Shown here: positions 1,482 to 11,365 of the stretch, in pieces | Numbering within the stretch: the stretch's first letter is position 1 | Layout of the letters: each line of letters starts with the position of its first letter | Origin: a virus | Taxonomy: Duplodnaviria; Heunggongvirae; Uroviricota; Caudoviricetes | Reading direction: 5' to 3' (one strand) | IMG/VR virus record: IMGVR_UViG_2531839662_000020 | Length of the DNA: 12,646 nt | The notes under the pieces: model-generated | Told to the model about the DNA's origin: nothing | Seen by the model: the letters and a program-made list of their open reading frames with translations, nothing else | The model's database searches: none | Made by a program: the position numbers and the translations under genes

Positions 1482-3143
1482 TTATACCCCATCAAACGCC
1501 GCAAGCCGCTCTTTGTGGCTGTCGCTCATATCGAATGCAAATTCCTCATGTTCTGCCTGGAATGTGCCAAACGCCATCAGCGCCGCAACGCTCGGGTCTA
1601 TCTTGTTGGATGATTTTTTCTTGTTCGGCTTGATATTGGCGTTCGCGTCACTCTGCATCACAACATTACTCATTGACCAGGCCAGCACCGGATCGCCACG
1701 ATGCACAATCACCTTCCGGTTAACAAAAACTTCGAACGATTTCGCCGCCGGACTGAAACGAAGGTATGTTTGCGGGAACGGCTCCACCTCAAATCCTGCC
1801 CCCTGTAGCTGCGTCCTCAGGTGCGTGGCGTTCCATGTATCGAAGCCCACCAGCCTGATATTGAAATTCTCTGCATCCGCCATGATGTCATCACGGATAC
1901 GGTCATAATCAATGCAGTCACCCGGTGTTGTGCGTATCCAGCCCGCCTTTACCCACTGGCGATAGATGGCGCGGTTTTTATTGGCGGGGTTCTGTAGCTG
2001 AAACTCCGGCAGATAGTGACGGGAAACCAGCATAATCTTTTTACCGACCGGAAAGGCATAGCACACGCTGGAAATATCGCTGGTTGATGATAAGTCCAGC
2101 CCCGCGTAGCACTCCTGCCCGTATAAATCCGCCTCCGCGAACGTTCCGGCGCACTCCGCCCATGCACCGTTACCCATCCACGGCGTGGCCCCCTGACACC
2201 AGATATTGAATCGCTTAGTGAGCATTTCCACCCACTGCGACGGAATACCCCGCGCTTTCTGGATGGTTGAGGCCAGTTTTTCACGATCGACGGAAACATC
2301 GATATTGGGATTCGCCTTTATCCACATCGCCGGATCGTCAACCTCGCTTTCATCATCCAGCTCGTAAATCAGCACGAACATGGATTCGTTCACCTCTTCA
2401 CCATCCAGTATCTGGCAGCAATAGTCGTAGTGTTGTTTACAGGCTGAAACAACGTTGCTCCCCGATGTGGTGATGGCAAATAATAACCCCTCCGGACGCG
2501 CCCCCATTCCCAGTTCAAGCGCGGAATAAACCCCGTTGTCAGGGTGCAGGTGATATTCATCCACAATGGCAAGACTCGGGTTTGTACCTTCAATGGTTGC
2601 CGCTTTTGCTGCCAGTGGCTTTAACAGGCTGTTGGTTTTCGGGTGTATCACCTTGTGTGCCTGAATATTTACCCGCTTTCGCAACGGTCGGGATAAAAGG
2701 CACATCTGACGCGCATCATCAAACACGATCCGCGCCTGATCACGACTCACGGCGGCGGTGTAAATATCCTGCTGCCCGTTTTCCATAACCAGAAACCAGT
2801 TAGCCAGGATAGCGGCGACCGTGGATTTGGCATTTTTTCGCGGCACTTCAATGAATGCGCTGGTGTATTTGCGCCGTCCGGTGGCCTTAACCTTAAAGCC
2901 CAGGATGCACGCAAAGGCGAACTGCTGCCACGGCTCCAGCTCAATGGGGCTACCGCGCATTGCGCCTTTTACGTGCGGACACACCCTGGAAAAGGCAATA
3001 AACCGCTCCACGACCTCCGGATCGAACGTGTAAAGGGGGTTTTCAAGGTCAGAAAAATACCGTTTAACGGCCTGTTTCAGTCGTTTACAGGCCGTAATTT
3101 TGCCGTTTTTTACGCCTTCTGCGTACTCATGCCAGGCGGTCAA
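1482..3143 (-). CDS. terL: Terminase large subunit (Terminase_1-like)
   Basis: 553-aa ORF with LEPWQ...F motif and P-loop-like VPRKNAKST near the N-terminus, then a nuclease-type C-terminal half. Apparent TTG start preceded by GAGGA. Overlaps the small terminase by 17 nt. Confidence 0.88.
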   Translation of the reverse strand: MTAWHEYAEGVKNGKITACKRLKQAVKRYFSDLENPLYTFDPEVVERFIAFSRVCPHVKGAMRGSPIELEPWQQFAFACILGFKVKATGRRKYTSAFIEVPRKNAKSTVAAILANWFLVMENGQQDIYTAAVSRDQARIVFDDARQMCLLSRPLRKRVNIQAHKVIHPKTNSLLKPLAAKAATIEGTNPSLAIVDEYHLHPDNGVYSALELGMGARPEGLLFAITTSGSNVVSACKQHYDYCCQILDGEEVNESMFVLIYELDDESEVDDPAMWIKANPNIDVSVDREKLASTIQKARGIPSQWVEMLTKRFNIWCQGATPWMGNGAWAECAGTFAEADLYGQECYAGLDLSSTSDISSVCYAFPVGKKIMLVSRHYLPEFQLQNPANKNRAIYRQWVKAGWIRTTPGDCIDYDRIRDDIMADAENFNIRLVGFDTWNATHLRTQLQGAGFEVEPFPQTYLRFSPAAKSFEVFVNRKVIVHRGDPVLAWSMSNVVMQSDANANIKPNKKKSSNKIDPSVAALMAFGTFQAEHEEFAFDMSDSHKERLAAFDGV

Positions 3144-3483
3144 GCTCGTCCTCTTCCTCTGTTTCCGGTGGATTTCTGCGGCGACTTACCGGGTCAAAAC
3201 CCAGCAAAGAAGCCATTTTGATCATTATTCTTTCCGCGTCAGCCTTTGCGCTCAGGGCGGGGTTTCTGCTCTCGCTGCCCTGACTGTTAACAATGCTGAA
3301 CCCGCGCGTGGCAAGGTCTTCGACGGCTTTGCGGTATATGGAGTAGTTAACGCAATATAGCTCCAGATTGCTCCAGTCGGCGGGGGTAAGGTCTTCCCGT
3401 CCGGAAAGCTGGCGCGATTTTTCCTTCCACTGCCTGACCGCGATTTCATCCAGGTAAGCGGGGGCTTTTGGTGGTCTTGCCAT
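3127..3483 (-). CDS. terS: Terminase small subunit, P27 family-like
   Basis: N-terminus MARPPKAPAYLDEIAVRQW is typical of P27-type small terminases and the length is about 118 aa. The longer track ORF (to 3624) is rejected as an N-terminal extension. Sits immediately upstream of terL. Confidence 0.75.
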   Translation of the reverse strand: MARPPKAPAYLDEIAVRQWKEKSRQLSGREDLTPADWSNLELYCVNYSIYRKAVEDLATRGFSIVNSQGSESRNPALSAKADAERIMIKMASLLGFDPVSRRRNPPETEEEDELDRLA

Positions 3484-3771
3484 GTTCTCTTTTCGCCCAA
3501 TTATTTTCAAAAAAAATCCCGTGCACAAAAATTTGAGGAGGCGGTCGGTGTCCGGCAGGGACGGTTTTGTCCTGAAAACCTCCCCCACCCCCTCTGACGG
3601 CCTCACCAGCGATTGCGAAAACATTCCATGACCTCGCGGTCACGGTCGGTTAATTGCTTCGCTGTGGTGCGTTCTGTGCGCCCTGTCCTGTTGGCTTTGT
3701 GCCCTGTCTCCTGTGTCTTCCATAAGTCACGCTGCCTTATCAGTCCACGTATCAGCCTGTTTTGCTCCTGT
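3484..3771. other. Candidate cos / terminase recognition region (HNH-TerS intergenic)
   Basis: 288-bp non-coding gap between the HNH gene and terS, the position cos occupies in HK97-like phages. Contains two 15-bp direct repeats (3676-3690 and 3698-3714), a C-rich tract at 3578-3600 and an A-tract at 3509-3530. Cut site not determinable from sequence. Confidence 0.3.
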
Positions 3772-4212
3772 TCAGTCATCATCGCCATACATCCAGTCGT
3801 TACGGTGTGCCGCCCGTTCTTCCTGCTCGCGATACATGCCCGCCTTACGGTTCGCTTTCGTGGCTGGATCTTCCCGTGTCGTCTTACGGTTGTGGCACGT
3901 CTGGCACAATGCCTGGTGATTCCACTCAGGCCAGAAGAGAACATCACCGCCGCCATTGATGGGAATGATGTGATCCACCACAAGAGCTGGCGTATAAATC
4001 CCCTTAGCCAGACAACGCACGCATAACGGGTTTTTGCTCAGGTACAGGGCGCGGTATTTGTCCCACTGTCGGGAATACCCGCGCGCGCGGCGGTGTCCCC
4101 GTCTGGCATCCTCTGCACGCCATGCAGCCCGCCTGTGCTCTTCACACTTTCCGGACTTCACGCGCTTATTACAGCCCGGCTCAGTGCAGCGCCTTAATGG
4201 TTGCCACGGCAT
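3772..4212 (-). CDS. HNH endonuclease (packaging-associated)
   Basis: 146 aa with CxxC...VDHIIP...N.Q.LC..CHNRKT HNH/zinc-finger motif. Start overlaps the connector stop (TGATG). Located just upstream of terS as in HK97-like packaging modules. Confidence 0.85.
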   Translation of the reverse strand: MPWQPLRRCTEPGCNKRVKSGKCEEHRRAAWRAEDARRGHRRARGYSRQWDKYRALYLSKNPLCVRCLAKGIYTPALVVDHIIPINGGGDVLFWPEWNHQALCQTCHNRKTTREDPATKANRKAGMYREQEERAAHRNDWMYGDDD

Positions 4213-4510: not shown

Positions 4511-5718
4511 TCTTTTTCACCTTTAATTTCCACAGTCTGCTTCCATGCCTGGCTGAACTCGTCGCCACCTTCACGCGGCGGCATTCCCTCACGCTCACGG
4601 GCTTCGTTCGGATTCATGATCCCGTTCTTAATCCCTTTCTCATACGTGGCGTAACGTTCAGTAGGTGTGGCGCGCAGTAAATCGGCTGAATCAAACTCAA
4701 CCAGATAACGGGTACCAGGTACGGGAGAAGCCACCAGCAAAGCGGCCTTGATTTGCTGTTCGAAGTTCGCCAGCCACGGACGCATTGTCATAGTCAGAAA
4801 CGCGCGGCTTGCCTCACTGAAATTGCTGTAGGTGCTGTTGCTGTATTCCTGCAGAAAAATCGGCGACACGTTGAACATCCGGGCGATGTCTTCAATGGAG
4901 AAGCGACGGGAGGCCAGCCATTCCGCATCCTGGTTACTCATCCCCAGTTGCTTGTAATCCATGCCCCCTTCAAGGATTGGCGTTTTTCCGGCATTTTTCG
5001 CCCCCTTGTAGCGTTCCAGTGCGTCTAATGCCTGTTTACCTTTCACGCCGTCCAGCCATTCGCCTGACGTGATAATCCCTGCCGCCATCATGCCATCTTT
5101 CATAATGCTGGCTCCGTGACGCTGTTGAGCAAGGCCAAGCCCCAGCGCCTCACGGCAAATCGTGATGGGGGAGCGTCCCAGAAAGCCATCATCCGAGGCA
5201 TAGCGGAGATGCAGAACTTCTTCCTGTAAATACGTGCGCACCGTTCCTGTACAGGGTTCGGTGATGGTATAGCGGTATTTGTGTGCGCCTGTGCGTTCCG
5301 GTACAACACACCCCGGCGCATAAGGATGAAGTGATTTTGGCTGACCGTCCCGCCCCCATTCAATAACCGCATAGGCGTTACCGTTCAGCAGGCAGTGACG
5401 CATCATTGTGCGTTTAAACTGGTAAGGTGTCTGGCACGAATTAGGCTGCTCATTCAGCAGAATATCTACCGGATGACTGTCCAGCCATTCCCGCGCCTCC
5501 CTGCCCTTGTCATTACGTACCAGATACAGATAACACGGCATCGTGGCCACCGCCTCAGCGATGACGGAAACCGCGTTCATCACTGCGGGCAATGATTCAG
5601 CCGTCCCGGCAGAAACATATTCTCCGGATCCGGTATTCGGTACGCCGGACAGCACCAGAAAATCATCAATGGACAGGTTACGTTGCTCGCTTTTTTTACG
5701 ACTAAAAGGCCACCACAT
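4504..5718 (-). CDS. Portal protein, HK97 family-like
   Basis: About 404 aa when started at the ATG at 5718 (MWWPFSRKK...), 1 nt after the protease stop. Size and position between protease and connector fit a portal. The upstream 73 codons of the track ORF overlap the protease gene and are rejected. Confidence 0.8.
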   Translation of the reverse strand: MWWPFSRKKSEQRNLSIDDFLVLSGVPNTGSGEYVSAGTAESLPAVMNAVSVIAEAVATMPCYLYLVRNDKGREAREWLDSHPVDILLNEQPNSCQTPYQFKRTMMRHCLLNGNAYAVIEWGRDGQPKSLHPYAPGCVVPERTGAHKYRYTITEPCTGTVRTYLQEEVLHLRYASDDGFLGRSPITICREALGLGLAQQRHGASIMKDGMMAAGIITSGEWLDGVKGKQALDALERYKGAKNAGKTPILEGGMDYKQLGMSNQDAEWLASRRFSIEDIARMFNVSPIFLQEYSNSTYSNFSEASRAFLTMTMRPWLANFEQQIKAALLVASPVPGTRYLVEFDSADLLRATPTERYATYEKGIKNGIMNPNEAREREGMPPREGGDEFSQAWKQTVEIKGEKDE

Positions 5719-5719
5719 A

Positions 5720-6280
5720 TCACAACCCCGCCAGCTCTGCCCAGCGATGACGATTATTTCCTGCCGGGCGTAATTCAGGGTGCTGTGCAAACAACGAACG
5801 GTGGGCAATCTCCACGCCAGATTCGGGATAAGCAGGCATCGACGTGATCGTGATTTCCCTGAGTTCTGCAGCGGTAACAGTACGCAGATACGGTTTTTGC
5901 GCGATATTCCACTCTTCGCATAATGCGCGAAAGCCAAAGCTCATCCCTGTAATGTCGCCACGCTCCACCAGCGTAAGCACATCTTTTCCAAGCTGGGTAT
6001 CAGGCGGTGTCAGTTCAAAACGTAGCCCGGTGTTGTCCTCAGTCAGTACCAGAGTGCCGGATTTGGTGCGCCCCAGCAGTTGGGTATAGTCATGCTCATA
6101 CAGGCAGCGCACATCATTACCCGCCGCCAGATAGTCAGCAAAAGCCCCCGGCGTGAACTGTTCGCGGAATTCGTCCCAGATAATTTCTGAAAGGCTGTTC
6201 CAGCGAACGGCATACCCCACCAGCTTTTTATTGCTGGCGGTCAGTTCAGATGTGCGGATTTCAAAATCGGTGTTTTTCAT
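5720..6280 (-). CDS. Prohead protease, HK97 family (S78-like)
   Basis: 186 aa with GGAG RBS 8 nt upstream of ATG. Sits between capsid and portal. Family recognised by eye from overall sequence and size. Confidence 0.8.
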   Translation of the reverse strand: MKNTDFEIRTSELTASNKKLVGYAVRWNSLSEIIWDEFREQFTPGAFADYLAAGNDVRCLYEHDYTQLLGRTKSGTLVLTEDNTGLRFELTPPDTQLGKDVLTLVERGDITGMSFGFRALCEEWNIAQKPYLRTVTAAELREITITSMPAYPESGVEIAHRSLFAQHPELRPAGNNRHRWAELAGL

Positions 6281-6296
6281 CGGTGTACTCCATAAA

Positions 6297-6322
6297 GCTG
6301 AAAAAGGAGGCCGCAGCCTCCT
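6297..6322 (-). terminator. Intrinsic terminator-like hairpin between capsid and protease genes (possible attenuator)
   Basis: On the minus-strand transcript: 7-bp GC-rich stem AGGAGGC / GCCUCCU (6305-6311 with 6316-6322), 4-nt loop, followed by UUUUU (6300-6304). Lies directly after the capsid stop at 6335. Confidence 0.4.
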
Positions 6323-6334
6323 CCTTACTCATGA

Positions 6335-7504
6335 CTAGCCAGCTTTCATTTCCAGAATTTTGATGGCGTTTGAATCCACCACACCACCGCCCAGATATTT
6401 ATCCGTGTGGACCTTGTAGAATCCGGGTTCAGTAATGTTGTCCGGTCGGGTGCGAATCCCTGTTACATGATCAACGATGAAATAACCACGACTGAAATCG
6501 CCAACCGCTAGCGGTGCTTTTCCTGCGCCGATGTCCGGCATGGACTCCAGGCAGAAAACAGGACGACCAAGCAACATATCCGGCGCACCTTCTTTAAGGC
6601 TGTCGCGCCAGATATAATCGCCATTCTCATTTTTCAGCTTCTGTAGTGTCCCTGCCGTGCCCGAGTTCATCACCCAGACGGCATTTTTGCGGTATTTCGC
6701 TTTCAGCTTGTAGAGAATGTCGATCAGTTCGTCCGCTGTAATGGCGGTTCCACTTGCCGCTACCACTTTTTCAATGGTGCCAAAAGCGCGGGTTTTGTCA
6801 CTGGTCGCCGCACGGGTGTAAGCCATGAAGCCTTTCGGCTTGCCGTTACCGTCGCCATTAACAAAATCATCCTCTTCGGTGCTGGCGAACGTGTCGGCAA
6901 TTTCGGAGGATAACCAGCCCAAAATATCCACCTCTGAAAAATCCAGGATTTCCTGCGTGGTTTTCGGGTAGGCGTAGATCTGATTCAGCTTGATGGTTAC
7001 ACGTTCAATTTTCGGGGTGTTGGTTTCACTACGTGCGCTGCCTTCTGTGCCTCGTCCTACAGTTGCGCCGCCAGTGGAAACCAGTTTCTGAAACTCATTT
7101 GATTTTGCGGTCTTCACGGTCGCGATCACGCGCATAACACTGTCATCCTGTAGCTGGCGCATGACTTCGCGATCAAGCTCAGGAATTACGGTATATCCGC
7201 CATCCCTGCCGCTGTCAGTGCTGGTGGACAGTGATCGCACATCTCCGGTTACGATGTAGTTACGCAATTCATCAGATGATAATTTCTGGATGCCCGTTCC
7301 TGGCTTGCTGCGTTCTTCATCAGCCACAGACTCGAGGCGGTAAATTTCTGTGTCGAGGGAATCGGCTTTTGCACGCAGTTCATCAAACTGTTTGCCCTCG
7401 TCATCGTTCAGGCTGCGGTTTTCACTGTCGGCTTTTTCCAGCAGGGATCGCATCTGGTTTTTCAGGGCGGTTTTTTGCTGGCGGAGTTCGATTAATTTCT
7501 TCAT
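6335..7504 (-). CDS. Major capsid protein, HK97 fold, with N-terminal delta/scaffold domain
   Basis: 389 aa. N-terminal about 100 aa is charged and coiled-coil-like (delta domain), followed by an HK97-like MCP body. First gene after the candidate late promoter. Confidence 0.85.
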   Translation of the reverse strand: MKKLIELRQQKTALKNQMRSLLEKADSENRSLNDDEGKQFDELRAKADSLDTEIYRLESVADEERSKPGTGIQKLSSDELRNYIVTGDVRSLSTSTDSGRDGGYTVIPELDREVMRQLQDDSVMRVIATVKTAKSNEFQKLVSTGGATVGRGTEGSARSETNTPKIERVTIKLNQIYAYPKTTQEILDFSEVDILGWLSSEIADTFASTEEDDFVNGDGNGKPKGFMAYTRAATSDKTRAFGTIEKVVAASGTAITADELIDILYKLKAKYRKNAVWVMNSGTAGTLQKLKNENGDYIWRDSLKEGAPDMLLGRPVFCLESMPDIGAGKAPLAVGDFSRGYFIVDHVTGIRTRPDNITEPGFYKVHTDKYLGGGVVDSNAIKILEMKAG

Positions 7505-7653: not shown

Positions 7654-7726
7654 AACATATACATAAAAATCAGTATGTAAACATCAGCCAGAATCACCGA
7701 ACAACCTGGAACAACCACGAACAAAT
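7654..7726 (-). promoter_or_regulatory. Candidate activator-dependent late promoter for the capsid operon
   Basis: On the minus strand: -35 TTTACA (7676-7681), 16-bp spacer, -10 TATGTT (7654-7659). Upstream are three direct repeats GGTTGTTC / GGTTGTTC / ATTTGTTC with 10-bp phasing (plus-strand GAACAACC at 7699-7706 and 7709-7716, GAACAAAT at 7719-7726). Confidence 0.35.
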
Positions 7727-7741
7727 AATTTACAAAACCTG

Positions 7742-7770
7742 AAAAAAAGACCTGGAGAAAATCCAGGCCT
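7742..7770 (-). terminator. Rho-independent terminator ending the early/replication operon
   Basis: On the minus-strand transcript: stem 7762-7770 pairs with 7748-7756 (9 bp, one mismatch), loop 7757-7761, then a U7 run (plus-strand A7 at 7742-7748). Lies 9 nt after the stop of the 82-aa gene. Confidence 0.65.
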
Positions 7771-7778
7771 TTATCGCT

Positions 7779-8027
7779 TTATTGTTTCACTGGATCCCGC
7801 ATTCTGCGTCTTATTTTCCACAGATATTCGATCATCGCTTCCACCTGCTCACGATTGGTTGCGAAAATTTCCCCGGTCAGTGAGCTGCGCAGAAAATCAT
7901 GATGATCCACAACAAACAACGCATCGGAAGAAAGCAGACGGCGATATTTTTTTGCTGTCGTGGTTTCCAGATCATCAAAACCATGAAACTTTTTATGTTG
8001 CTGGACTTCTTCAAATGTCACTGGCAT
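7779..8027 (-). CDS. Hypothetical protein, 82 aa, translationally coupled to the ProQ/FinO gene
   Basis: ATG start at 8027 overlaps the upstream gene's 3' end by 10 nt. No family recognised. Followed by the terminator. Confidence 0.5.
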   Translation of the reverse strand: MPVTFEEVQQHKKFHGFDDLETTTAKKYRRLLSSDALFVVDHHDFLRSSLTGEIFATNREQVEAMIEYLWKIRRRMRDPVKQ

Positions 8028-8560
8028 GTATCCCCCTTTGCTGCCCGGCGCTGGCGCTTGTGCTTCTCATTCAGCGCCATCAGCCGCGTTTCTGCCTCCT
8101 GCTGTTCCTGTGGTGTCACTTCCCCACATGGCTGGCCTTTCAGGTCGTATCGTACCCCACCAGCAACCAGGGCGCGGTAATAGCGCGGAGACTGCGCATA
8201 AGATGCCAGCGTCGCACGTAATGCCCCCGGCCCGAATGCCAGCCCCCTGACGGCGAGATCCTGCATCAGGTCGTCGAATATCCCCACCTTAAGCGGCTTC
8301 GGTGCTTCCCTGTTGAATAAGTCAGGCCACATCTCAGTGAGGCGGTTAACGCGCCTGCGGTTTTTGCGCTGGCGTTTGGTCATATGCCGCCACGGTGTCA
8401 CCCCTGTGGGCTGCCCTTTGCGGCTCTGCTGTGCGTTCTGATTGCCGGGTATCACTTTATGCGCCGATGTGGTTTTATCCCGCTCTTGCGCCGCCTGCGT
8501 CGTTTTCTGCGGCGTGCCGTAAATGCCTTTCGGTTTTCGGTTAATGGTCAGCTTTGTCAT
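8018..8560 (-). CDS. ProQ/FinO-domain RNA-binding protein with basic N-terminal extension
   Basis: C-terminal two-thirds (WPDLFNREAPKPLKVGIFDDL...LRATLASYAQSPRYYRALVAGGVRYDLKGQPCGEVTPQEQQEA) matches the ProQ/FinO N-terminal domain pattern recalled from E. coli ProQ. N-terminal about 70 aa is Lys/Arg/Gln-rich. AGGGGAAGG RBS. Confidence 0.75.
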   Translation of the reverse strand: MTKLTINRKPKGIYGTPQKTTQAAQERDKTTSAHKVIPGNQNAQQSRKGQPTGVTPWRHMTKRQRKNRRRVNRLTEMWPDLFNREAPKPLKVGIFDDLMQDLAVRGLAFGPGALRATLASYAQSPRYYRALVAGGVRYDLKGQPCGEVTPQEQQEAETRLMALNEKHKRQRRAAKGDTCQ

Positions 8561-8596: not shown

Positions 8597-9022
8597 TTAA
8601 AACGGTATGTTATCCCCGTACAGGTCATCGTGCTGGCCTGTCTGTTGTTTTGCCCTGTTCAGTGCGTCAGTGGCCTGCCCCTGTTGGCCTTTTTTGCCGC
8701 CCGGTCGCGCCGTTCTCGCACTGATTACGCTGTCTGCGATGACCTGCCAGCCCTGCCGCGTTTCGCCGTTCTGCCCTGTCCACTGGCTTACCTGCATGTT
8801 ACCCGCCACGTTCACCAGTTCGCCTTTGCGGTGTTTTGCCAGTGCGTCGGCCTGTCTGCCAAACGCCAGGACGGATAACCACATCGTCGCCGTTCCGTCA
8901 TCTGCCTGGCTGCATGGCAGGGGAACCGCCATACTCGCCATCGCCATTTGTGTTCCCTTGCTGGTGGTCTTTAACTGCGGGTCAGCCACCAGCCGCCCGT
9001 AAGCCGCTATCTGTGCTGTCAT
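8597..9022 (-). CDS. ssb: Single-stranded DNA-binding protein (SSB)
   Basis: 141 aa. OB-fold-like N-terminal region (GRLVADPQLK...), Gly/Gln-rich linker, and acidic C-terminal tail DDLYGDNIPF resembling the SSB DDDIPF tip. Confidence 0.8.
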   Translation of the reverse strand: MTAQIAAYGRLVADPQLKTTSKGTQMAMASMAVPLPCSQADDGTATMWLSVLAFGRQADALAKHRKGELVNVAGNMQVSQWTGQNGETRQGWQVIADSVISARTARPGGKKGQQGQATDALNRAKQQTGQHDDLYGDNIPF

Positions 9023-9241: not shown

Positions 9242-11365
9242 TTAATCTTCTGCCTCAGGCTGGAACATCAGCACGTAAAAAACATGCTGCTTCCCCCCAA
9301 TTTTGCCGAGCGCCTTTTTCTTGTAACGGCGATCGTTACCCGCTTCCAGCATTCCGGCAGCACTCAACGCGCGGGCAAAGTGAGACGGATTAAATCCCTG
9401 TGCTATCTCACCCTCAAATACATGCGGGAACGTGTAAAAACGGAACTCGTCATCTTCGTTTCTGATACTCCCCTTTCTGTATCCGGCAAGTTCTTTAATC
9501 GGTAAATCACGCTCGTCGGTATTGGGCCACGGAAGGTATCTGCTGAATCCGAACGACGCTAAAAAAGCTTCTGCCTGTTCAACCATCTGTTTAAATTCCC
9601 TGTTACCCGTGCCGAACTCCTTCACCCAGGCATTAAAATTATGCTGTATGGCATCGCGGCATTCCTGCTCATCCCAGCCAGTAACATGACCTGAAAGCAC
9701 AAGCGCGGCCTCCAGTATGGCAAATCGCTCCCCCACACGGTGAACCTGTTCGCCGTAGCTCTCCGGTATCAGGTTGCGCCACCGCTCACGGCATGTCCTT
9801 ACCGTGTCCTTTGCCTCCTGCTGGTGTTCTGCCAGCCATTTAACCCACTCACGACCCGCCGCCCCGTGATTTTCTGTCCAGGCATCCTTTAACGCGTCTG
9901 CGTGCGCCTTTCCGGTGCTGTATTCGTGAAATTGCGTGGCTTTTTCCATCGGAACGTTAAGCAGGCGGACAAGCTGCCCCGCTTTGACTTTTATCCCCTC
10001 CGTTTTGAGGAATGTCTCAACGTCCATTTCTCCGGTGCTGATTGCCACCGTGCGCCAGTGTTTGATCTCCCTGTTGCCGCCGTCCTTCGCCCCCTGTAAT
10101 TTCCCCGAACCGTTAAACAGCGTATAGGCTGACGTGGACACCTCCCGCGCGTTTCCGGCCTGGCCTATTTCATCCAGGGGTAAAAGCCCGTCATTGTGTG
10201 CCTCTGCTTCGTTGGCGATACCTAACGCTGTGCCGTACCAGGTCAGCCGCTGCGCGTCCGGCTCTCCCCATAAACTTGATGCGATGTTCTGTGTGGTGGT
10301 TTTCCCTGCCGATGACTGTTCGAAAAGATGTACCCCGAAGCCGTCAGCGCCCACCAGCCCGATTAATGGTGCGGATAACGATACCGCCACACCCAGCATC
10401 ATGGACGGATTACCACCAGCCAGCCGCGCAACGATATCGCGCCAGCCCTCCGCCGTTCCTGCCACGGAATAGCCATTAACAGCAGCCGTTTTTCCGGTAA
10501 ACAGGACTGGCTTTTCGCAATCACCAATGACCGAACCGTCCGGCATGATGTACGCGCCAAAATGCCAGCCCGTTGTTGTGCTTAACTGCCATTCCTCATG
10601 GCTTCCGCTTAACTGCATCCAGTCAGCCAGGATAGCCCTGTATTTACCGTTGGTTGTTACGTTCAGTCCGTGGTCTTTCAGCAACCGCCAGCCGTCACGG
10701 TCGCCAATGCCACCGCACGGAACCGCCATTGTGATGACTTCATGGTTTGCTAATTTTTTCCAGCGCATCACGCGGTAATGCTCTTTACCGATTGTCCCCG
10801 TTCCCAGTAGTTCAAGCGGGGAACATAACCACGTCTCAGGCCGGATAATTTCGCCTGACTGCTTATCCACTTTTGGCGTTACCCAGAAAACACCATCGGC
10901 GCGACTTTCAACGCGGGGCTTTAATTCATCATCGCCCTGGATTTCTGTGATTTTTTTCTTTAAGGGCAACACCAGACTTTCCCCGCGCTCGTATTCGTCT
11001 TTGAGGCGAGGCAACTGGTCGGATAAATCCGCCGGGCTGATGTCAGTTATCCCCGCGTATTCGTATACGGTCTTCACGCCAGCCACAGCCAGCAACGTGA
11101 CGATCTGTGTAAGGCTACGTTCAGTGATGTGCCCTGCGCGGTAAACACGCACACACTGACGGCTATCATCAATAATTTGATAACCGGTAATATCTTTCAG
11201 GTGTTCATCTGACAGAACGACAGGCGGCACATTGTCGGCGGCAATATGCTTACCTGCCCATTCCTGCCACTCTTTCGCATGGCTCCACGCATCACTACCC
11301 GCAAAGATGATAACCTCCGTCATTTTGTCGGCTGGCTGGTGCTTTAAGTTTGGTGCGCGCTTCAT
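9242..11365 (-). CDS. Replicative primase-helicase (toprim-like N-terminus, P-loop NTPase core; DUF927-like)
   Basis: 707 aa. Walker A-like SSAGKTTT in the central region. Overall resemblance to satellite and prophage primase/helicase replication proteins. ATGA overlap with the upstream small gene. Followed by iterons. Confidence 0.8.
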   Translation of the reverse strand: MKRAPNLKHQPADKMTEVIIFAGSDAWSHAKEWQEWAGKHIAADNVPPVVLSDEHLKDITGYQIIDDSRQCVRVYRAGHITERSLTQIVTLLAVAGVKTVYEYAGITDISPADLSDQLPRLKDEYERGESLVLPLKKKITEIQGDDELKPRVESRADGVFWVTPKVDKQSGEIIRPETWLCSPLELLGTGTIGKEHYRVMRWKKLANHEVITMAVPCGGIGDRDGWRLLKDHGLNVTTNGKYRAILADWMQLSGSHEEWQLSTTTGWHFGAYIMPDGSVIGDCEKPVLFTGKTAAVNGYSVAGTAEGWRDIVARLAGGNPSMMLGVAVSLSAPLIGLVGADGFGVHLFEQSSAGKTTTQNIASSLWGEPDAQRLTWYGTALGIANEAEAHNDGLLPLDEIGQAGNAREVSTSAYTLFNGSGKLQGAKDGGNREIKHWRTVAISTGEMDVETFLKTEGIKVKAGQLVRLLNVPMEKATQFHEYSTGKAHADALKDAWTENHGAAGREWVKWLAEHQQEAKDTVRTCRERWRNLIPESYGEQVHRVGERFAILEAALVLSGHVTGWDEQECRDAIQHNFNAWVKEFGTGNREFKQMVEQAEAFLASFGFSRYLPWPNTDERDLPIKELAGYRKGSIRNEDDEFRFYTFPHVFEGEIAQGFNPSHFARALSAAGMLEAGNDRRYKKKALGKIGGKQHVFYVLMFQPEAED

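Follow-up and report, generated by a model that had tools for sequence, protein, structure and literature searches.

Directly behind its major capsid protein gene, the stretch of DNA analysed here (12,646 nt, hereafter the window) carries a GC-rich hairpin followed by a run of T, which has the anatomy of an intrinsic (Rho-independent) terminator and is strongly conserved in position and structure among related loci. We consider it probable that this hairpin acts as a leaky terminator, with the 3' end of the capsid cistron also protected by it, and that capsid-only mRNA would be enriched as a result.

The satellite and its post-capsid hairpin

Every gene in the window lies on the minus strand (Table 1). 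The segment between positions 5600 and 7600 is 100% identical to the chromosome of E. coli UMNF18, where PGAP calls a 'phage major capsid protein' in the identical segment and where an island of ~16 kb lies between thiM and rcnR. This island encodes an integrase, AlpA (PF05930), a DUF927 replication protein, ProQ/FinO, capsid, protease, portal, connector, HNH, TerS and TerL; neither the Pfam search nor the PGAP annotation yielded tail or lysis genes in it. Gene content and setting identify the window as an E. coli satellite of the capsid-forming PICI (cf-PICI) type: int, alpA, a replication gene, a packaging set of its own, the lack of tail and lysis genes, a size of ~10-16 kb and a non-prophage site, by which such elements are recognised, were all found in the window or in the UMNF18 island. 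Compared with the window, UMNF18 (locus L001) has ~555 bp extra between the capsid gene and an 82-aa ORF, with a 168-aa ORF on the opposite strand, and PGAP has its TerS and HNH genes as frameshifted pseudogenes (9529-9884, 10172-10613 and 14192-14698 of that locus), unlike the window ORFs at 3127-3624 (TerS) and 3772-4212 (HNH), both of which give full-length Pfam matches. The window therefore stems from a different, mosaic variant of the island.

Table 1 Coordinates of the features discussed in the text
Feature	Coordinates	Strand	Description	Basis
Upstream terminator-like hairpin	7742-7772	-	AAAGGCCUGGA-UUUUC-UCCAGGUCUUU followed by UUUU	G-U-tolerant scan
Candidate promoter-like match	7654-7681	-	TTTACA-16-TATGTT, between the upstream terminator and the capsid ATG	Consensus scan, 9/12
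Major capsid protein gene (HK97 fold)	6335-7504	-	389 aa, stop TAG 6337-6335	PF05065 Phage_capsid, E = 7.5e-72
Post-capsid hairpin	6305-6322	-	5' arm AGGAGGC 6322-6316, loop UGCG 6315-6312, 3' arm GCCUCCU 6311-6305	Sequence
T-rich tail	6294-6304	-	UUUU 6304-6301, CAGC, UUU 6296-6294	Sequence
Prohead serine protease gene (Peptidase_S78)	5720-6280	-	186 aa, ATG 6280, RBS GGAG 6291-6288	PF04586, E = 5.3e-46
Portal gene	5718-4504	-		Pfam; boundaries from the PGAP annotation of the identical UMNF18 segment
Connector gene	4511-4212	-		Pfam; PGAP boundaries
HNH gene	4212-3772	-		Pfam; PGAP boundaries
TerS gene	3624-3127	-		Pfam; PGAP boundaries
TerL gene	3143-1482	-		Pfam; PGAP boundaries

The genes 3' of the hairpin are separated by 1-nt gaps or overlap, with the exception of 147 nt between HNH and TerS, and a consensus scan of the minus strand from 6300 to 1482 gave no match to a sigma-70-like promoter. 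The HNH-TerS gap (3625-3771, minus strand) contains a hairpin of its own, CCGTGACC-GCGA-GGTCATGG at 3645-3626, just 5' of the TerS start, which may be a cos region or a regulatory element.

The 5' arm of the post-capsid hairpin begins after 12 nt from the capsid stop codon on the coding (minus) strand. Its 7-bp stem, which includes five G-C pairs and is capped by the UGCG loop (ΔG = −13.3 kcal/mol), falls within the range typical of intrinsic terminators (GC-rich, ~5-14 bp, loop of 3-8 nt), and so does the U-tract, whereby UUUU abuts the stem and UUU lies 4 nt further on; five consecutive T are obtained if the paired T6305 is counted with the free TTTT at 6304-6301. The location, on the coding strand and 3' of the capsid gene, and the lower frequency of such elements in shuffled sequences likewise conform to a terminator. 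The preliminary description of this DNA had placed a GC-rich 7-bp stem and a U-run in the interval from the capsid stop to the protease RBS, and reading the sequence finds both in place; the range that it assigned to the element, 6297-6322, does contain the stem and the T-run but includes four extra bases, the stem proper being confined to 6305-6322.

Under a strict definition of a terminator (perfect stem of at least 5 bp, loop of 3-8 nt, at least four T among the next six nucleotides, ΔG ≤ −8), the post-capsid hairpin is the sole match on both strands of the window, against 0.27 strict matches per strand in dinucleotide shuffles (0.025 at ΔG ≤ −12). When one G-U pair was allowed, only two sites were detected on both strands of the window, the post-capsid hairpin and the upstream hairpin at 7772-7742, both on the coding strand and one on either side of the capsid gene. 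These scans with our own definitions were used in place of a scan with greedy G-T stem extension, which lists neither site and misses the post-capsid hairpin because the extension eats the T-run. Extended by G-U and A-U pairs into its A/U flanks, the post-capsid hairpin folds at −16.7 kcal/mol (z = −2.95, 1 of 200 shuffles equal). The palindrome is present in one copy in the window, and no part of the window matches Rfam at gathering thresholds, which is not the pattern of a REP-like dispersed repeat or of a known Rfam family.

Two other features of the hairpin region were judged incidental from reading the sequence. A small ORF runs from an ATG at 6332 across the hairpin, out of frame with anything; and the 5' arm (AAGGAGGAGG) resembles a Shine-Dalgarno sequence with no start codon at a usable distance from it.

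The upstream hairpin is stronger than the post-capsid one, with 11 bp that include one G-U pair and a UUUUC loop (fold −15.9 kcal/mol, z = −3.64, 0 of 200 shuffles equal). It is located directly 3' of the stop codon of the 82-aa ORF and ~240 nt 5' of the capsid ATG, and a comparable site within 400 nt 5' of the capsid start was found in 35 of the 90 relatives. As a dedicated capsid promoter, the scan offers one weak match to the consensus (9/12), and such matches are rarer in the window than in shuffles. At ~7695-7740 (minus strand), the sequence TTTTGTAAATTATTTGTTCGTGGTTGTTCCA(G/C)GTTGTTC with direct (G)GTTGTTC repeats is near-identical to that in the diverged island of an O157:H7 strain (L327, 230-290), the capsid 3' end of which is only ~79% identical to that of the window; divergence resumes past this stretch, which in the window is followed by a GC-rich leader of ~150 nt. 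The GTTGTTC stretch may serve to control the packaging operon, as a binding site for a regulator or as a late-promoter region.

Two genes 5' of the capsid gene, at 8018-8560 (minus strand), the window encodes a ProQ/FinO-domain protein (PF04352, E = 9e-25), a member of a class known to bind terminator hairpins. Of the 161 sequences, searched up to 3 kb upstream of the capsid gene where the contig permits, only 8 have a homologue, whereas the hairpin is near-universal. The ProQ/FinO gene is thus an accessory gene that does not co-occur with the hairpin in the manner of a ProQ/FinO-dependent terminator and cannot explain it.

Conservation of the stem and of the T-tract

The relatives comprise 160 loci with a capsid identity of 59-100%, from Escherichia, Enterobacter, Klebsiella-like bacteria, Kosakonia, Serratia, Erwinia, Pectobacterium, Xenorhabdus, Photorhabdus, Gilliamella and Pasteurellaceae, and yield 90 distinct capsid-protease spacers. 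In 160 of the 161 sequences the capsid gene precedes the protease gene, and the one deviation is a truncated contig. A hairpin with ΔG ≤ −8 that starts no more than about 15 nt past the capsid stop was identified in 83 of the 90 distinct spacers, and three more have a weaker hairpin in the same position. The remaining four, all from Xenorhabdus/Photorhabdus (L022, L029, L055 and L062), are 5-18 nt long and lack the hairpin, which is therefore dispensable in some lineages; in one locus (L160), the stem is broken by a point mutation. Strict matches within 45 nt past the capsid stop occur in 58 of the 90 representative loci (616 kb in total) where ~0.4 would be expected, given a same-strand background of 0.109 strict matches per kb elsewhere, so that the post-capsid site is enriched more than 100-fold across the family.

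Each hairpin was anchored on its own stem, because 4-nt and 5-nt loops fall in different registers and make a single MAFFT consensus structure unusable. Pairing is complete in each of the 71 distinct hairpin segments, although they include 21 GC-closed stems and 32 loops of 3-7 nt. Changes on both sides of the stem were observed, with GGAGGC/GCCTCC in the clade of the window vs. GGGGC/GCCCC, and GGGAT/ATCCC vs. GGGGT/GCCCC, and the loop-closing pair can be C-G, T-A, A-T or G-C. This comparison indicates that selection acts on the RNA structure of the stem: variable loop length together with compensatory changes in the arms points to an RNA stem rather than to an operator in double-stranded DNA.

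The T-tract behaves differently from the stem. At least three T past the stem are conserved at a level of 90% or more in the alignment of the 71 distinct segments. Counted after the GC-closed core, the T-run ranges from 0 to 8, with at least four T in 33 of the 71 segments and three or fewer in 38, many relatives having 2-3. The run is 5 in the clade of the window and in many Enterobacterales, and 5-8 in most Pasteurellaceae segments. A score of the d'Aubenton-Carafa type is positive in only 44 of the 71 segments. The hairpin is kept even where a good terminator is not. In the island of the O157:H7 strain, which belongs to the EcCIEDL933 lineage, the hairpin AAGGGGCU-UAAA-AGCCCCUU is followed by UAGUGUUUU and then by AUG, and a terminator is present upstream of the capsid gene as well.

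Several individual loci stand out in other respects. In Testudinibacter aquarius (L024), the capsid-protease spacer is 850 nt long; the hairpin with T6 follows the capsid gene as usual, and ~800 nt extra, apparently an extra gene, lie between it and the protease gene. A different hairpin, CCCTCG-ACCGC-CGAGGG with TTTAC behind it, was found in several Xenorhabdus loci ~680 nt past the capsid stop, probably inside the portal gene, irrespective of whether the post-capsid hairpin is present. At least five separate loci with such a capsid were found in each of the genomes of Xenorhabdus innexi (L020, L023, L025, L027 and L046) and of Pasteurellaceae bacterium Macca (L068-L070, L073 and L074), so that some Xenorhabdus and Pasteurellaceae genomes hold many cf-PICI-like copies. 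Finally, a 106-kb record named 'Klebsiella phage P12620-1' has a cf-PICI-like end (PQ569648.1, 96271-106503; L165), in which a capsid gene with a 76% identical product is followed by the same hairpin and then by the protease and portal genes; either chimeric assembly or co-packaging of satellite DNA may account for this.

A probable leaky terminator and its alternatives

In the model that we favour, transcription would run into the capsid gene from the interval bounded by the upstream terminator and the capsid ATG, and a fraction of the polymerases would release at the hairpin and U-tract, giving a capsid-only mRNA whose stable 3'-terminal hairpin would shield it against 3' exonucleases, while the other polymerases would read on into the protease, portal, connector, HNH, TerS and TerL genes. 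The capsid message would then exceed the message for low-copy proteins. The portal is a dodecamer, and a T = 4 particle would require ~235-240 capsid subunits vs. 12 portal subunits; the capsid of the prototype satellite EcCIEDL933 is of the T = 4 type, with 240 capsid protein positions. The layout is that expected of a leaky post-capsid terminator, with the hairpin after the capsid gene and essential same-strand genes 3' of it for which the scan gave no promoter-like match. Termination would have to be partial, because the downstream genes are tightly packed, lack a promoter match and, in EcCIEDL933, are all among the packaging genes required for transfer (cf-PICI literature). The anatomy of the element, its statistical rarity, its position-specific conservation with compensatory changes, the layout of the operon and the incompleteness of any termination are shown by the analysis, whereas termination itself, its efficiency and its weight relative to stabilisation are inferred. 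If the model is correct, the hairpin would be the main transcriptional device by which a capsid-building satellite obtains far more capsid than protease, portal and terminase from one operon, and edits of the stem or of the T-tract would provide a simple handle on these ratios in cf-PICI-based delivery particles.

A more elaborate version, to which we give little credence, would make the capsid gene an insulated cassette composed of the upstream terminator, the GTTGTTC control region, the capsid gene and the leaky terminator. Read-through would be tuned by clade via the 0-8 T and possibly by a ribosome at the capsid stop, less than ~15 nt from the stem, that hinders the hairpin, yielding a translation-coupled attenuator that fixes a capsid:portal ratio of ~20:1; the capsid-first order would let one terminator down-tune the other packaging genes.

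The closest competitor of the leaky terminator, which we regard as the less likely of the two by a good measure, is a pure mRNA-stability or processing element: read-through would be near-total, endonucleolytic cleavage would follow, and the hairpin would block 3'-to-5' exonucleases such that the capsid segment is longer-lived, with the same effect on stoichiometry. A hairpin that mainly protects the 3' end of a processed capsid mRNA would fit the data equally well. The constancy of the stem next to a variable T-tract, with three or fewer T after the GC-closed core in more than half of the segments, speaks for this scheme. So does the vB_EcoM-720R4 group of phages, in which the 45 nt past the capsid gene fold strongly (about −19 to −26 kcal/mol) into a hairpin that is not followed by a T-run. 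Furthermore, phages with the conventional gene order have the hairpin 3' of the portal and protease genes, where termination cannot lower the portal and protease transcripts. Conversely, a canonical tail of T4-T8 is found in the clade of the window, in much of Enterobacterales and in all Pasteurellaceae relatives, and the conserved minimum of three T is not needed by an exonuclease block, although this last point is indecisive because conserved A residues further upstream pair with some of these T. A literature search for experimental work on post-capsid hairpins acting via mRNA stability returned nothing usable.

We consider it improbable that the hairpin is a conditional stop which, together with the upstream terminator, silences the packaging genes in the uninduced state and is bypassed after induction by a polymerase modified by an antiterminator of the satellite or of its helper, in which case timing rather than stoichiometry would be controlled. 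The two terminator-like sites that flank the capsid gene would suit such a switch, as would the lambdoid nature of the helper phages (HK97, HK106 and HK022). Lambdoid phages rely on Q antitermination for their late genes. The island also encodes a protein named AlpA, and the AlpA of P. aeruginosa is a processive antiterminator (PMC7969949); however, the shared name is not evidence of a shared function, and the only PDB chain matched by the island protein is 8c3t, an 'AlpA family phage regulatory protein', with no other chain at E ≤ 1 in the PDB copy searched, and hence none labelled as an antiterminator AlpA complex of P. aeruginosa, so that we reject antitermination by homology. Moreover, a block 3' of the capsid gene would leave the capsid expressed without induction, which is odd for silencing, and neither a Q-binding nor an AlpA-binding element was identified. 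Should an antiterminator modify the polymerase that transcribes the operon, no termination would occur at the hairpin.

Least of all do we expect the palindrome to act in DNA, whether it is bound by a dimeric protein or serves as a signal for recombination or packaging, or to be a functionless chance or REP-like sequence. It does form a perfect 7+7 inverted repeat in double-stranded DNA, but arm spacing of 3-7 nt and compensatory arm changes fit an RNA stem better than they would an operator, for which they are unsuited, and the flanks differ between the strands, since a T-run is present only 3' of the stem as read on the coding strand. The palindrome is single-copy in the window, ~0.03 such sites are expected per strand by chance, and the site shows the above enrichment across the family. 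ProQ/FinO, an RNA-hairpin binder encoded nearby, is present in only 8 of the sequences searched, whereas the hairpin is near-universal.

Comparison with post-capsid hairpins of phages and with other satellites

The preliminary description had proposed that a partial terminator sets the stoichiometry of the packaging proteins and had added that this fits an unusual capsid-first gene order. The first part is consistent with the anatomy, the conservation, the requirement for partial termination and the demand for 240 capsid subunits vs. a 12-mer portal, whereas the argument from gene order does not hold. Capsid-first is the standard order of proteobacterial cf-PICIs, and hairpins or terminators of this kind behind the capsid gene are annotated in HK97 and SfV, seen in K272 and vB_EcoM-720R4, predicted in SPP1 and described for T7 and LUZ100, all of the conventional order portal-protease-capsid; a link between the hairpin and the gene order is therefore not supported. 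With the capsid gene first, one leaky terminator would down-tune all the other packaging genes.

In HK97 (NC_002167.1), a 'putative terminator' is annotated at 5192-5213, right behind the major head gene gp5, with the layout TGA-TGGA-GGGGGCGGG-GAAA-CCCGCCC-TTTT-AACGT-ATG, and the hairpin is kept across 21 distinct spacers of the HK97 group, with variable loops. In SfV (NC_003444.1), a 'putative rho-independent terminator' is annotated at 5547-5584, after the major head gene orf5. Both terminators are annotation predictions. They resemble the element in the window in that an HK97-fold capsid is accompanied by a companion S78 protease and that a GC-rich stem capped by a tetraloop begins a few nucleotides past the stop codon, with a T-run and a short spacer before the next start. 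They differ in gene order, which is portal-protease-capsid-hairpin-connector, so that the hairpin divides head genes from connector and tail genes, whereas in the window the capsid gene comes first and the hairpin divides it from the protease, portal and terminase genes. The stem sequences, too, are unrelated to that of the window, and the capsids are only distantly related, with an identity to that of the window of 36% for the closest true phage (vB_EcoM-720R4 group) and of 21.5% for the SfV match. The HK97 genome paper (Juhala et al. 2000) is said to discuss such hairpins after genes for abundant proteins. Among other phages, the strong hairpin of vB_EcoM-720R4 has no T-run, and in Vibrio phage K272 the capsid gene is followed by CGGGGCC-ACAA-UGGCCCCG-UUUUU. 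When IMG/VR was scanned with the capsids of HK97 and vB_EcoM-720R4, every relative obtained was 94-100% identical to its query, and true phages are therefore represented by little independent sampling.

More distant parallels exist in SPP1, T7 and LUZ100. A predicted Rho-independent terminator follows the major capsid gene 13 of SPP1 (nt 8775-8815; PMC6316719, Table 2), where a GC-rich hairpin with a T7 run starts from the capsid stop codon within the late structural cluster; SPP1 differs in its Gram-positive host and unrelated capsid lineage, and its terminator is only predicted. In LUZ100, described as 'Similar to T7', the capsid gene is under a local promoter and has a terminator immediately downstream (PMC10134795), and for T7 inefficient terminators that balance expression are described as demonstrated in work cited in PMC9163698. 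The likeness to T7 (terminator T-phi) and LUZ100 lies in the capsid gene forming its own unit, with a local promoter 5', a terminator 3' and read-through into later essential genes; the corresponding unit of the window would consist of the upstream terminator, the candidate promoter-like site, the capsid gene and the hairpin. T7-like phages differ in that they encode a single-subunit RNA polymerase with dedicated class I terminators, and the promoter of the window is no more than a weak consensus match. No RNA polymerase gene was found in the window or in the UMNF18 island, and the satellite is therefore presumed to use the host RNA polymerase.

With 90 distinct spacers from two bacterial orders, the present family provides a well-sampled case for the old and mostly unproven annotations of 'putative terminators' after major capsid genes. 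Clear selection on the stem but not on the T-tract raises the question of termination vs. 3'-end protection for post-capsid elements in general. The value of the case lies in clean comparative evidence of selection on the stem, in two sites that flank the capsid gene and in a ready experimental system; the general picture of phage or satellite gene regulation does not change.

The closest counterparts of the window are the cf-PICIs themselves. Their published packaging module consists of capsid, protease, portal, connectors, HNH, TerS and TerL and is organised unlike that of the helper phage (bioRxiv 10.1101/2022.09.08.507074; 10.1101/2025.02.11.637232), and the window shares with EcCIEDL933 this gene content and order, preceded by int, alpA and a replication gene. 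The word 'terminator' does not occur in these two papers, and the transcript structure of the packaging operon is likewise absent from them; the hairpin is therefore undescribed for cf-PICIs. Thus, a hairpin or terminator behind the capsid gene is a device already known from ordinary phages, and it is new for cf-PICIs.
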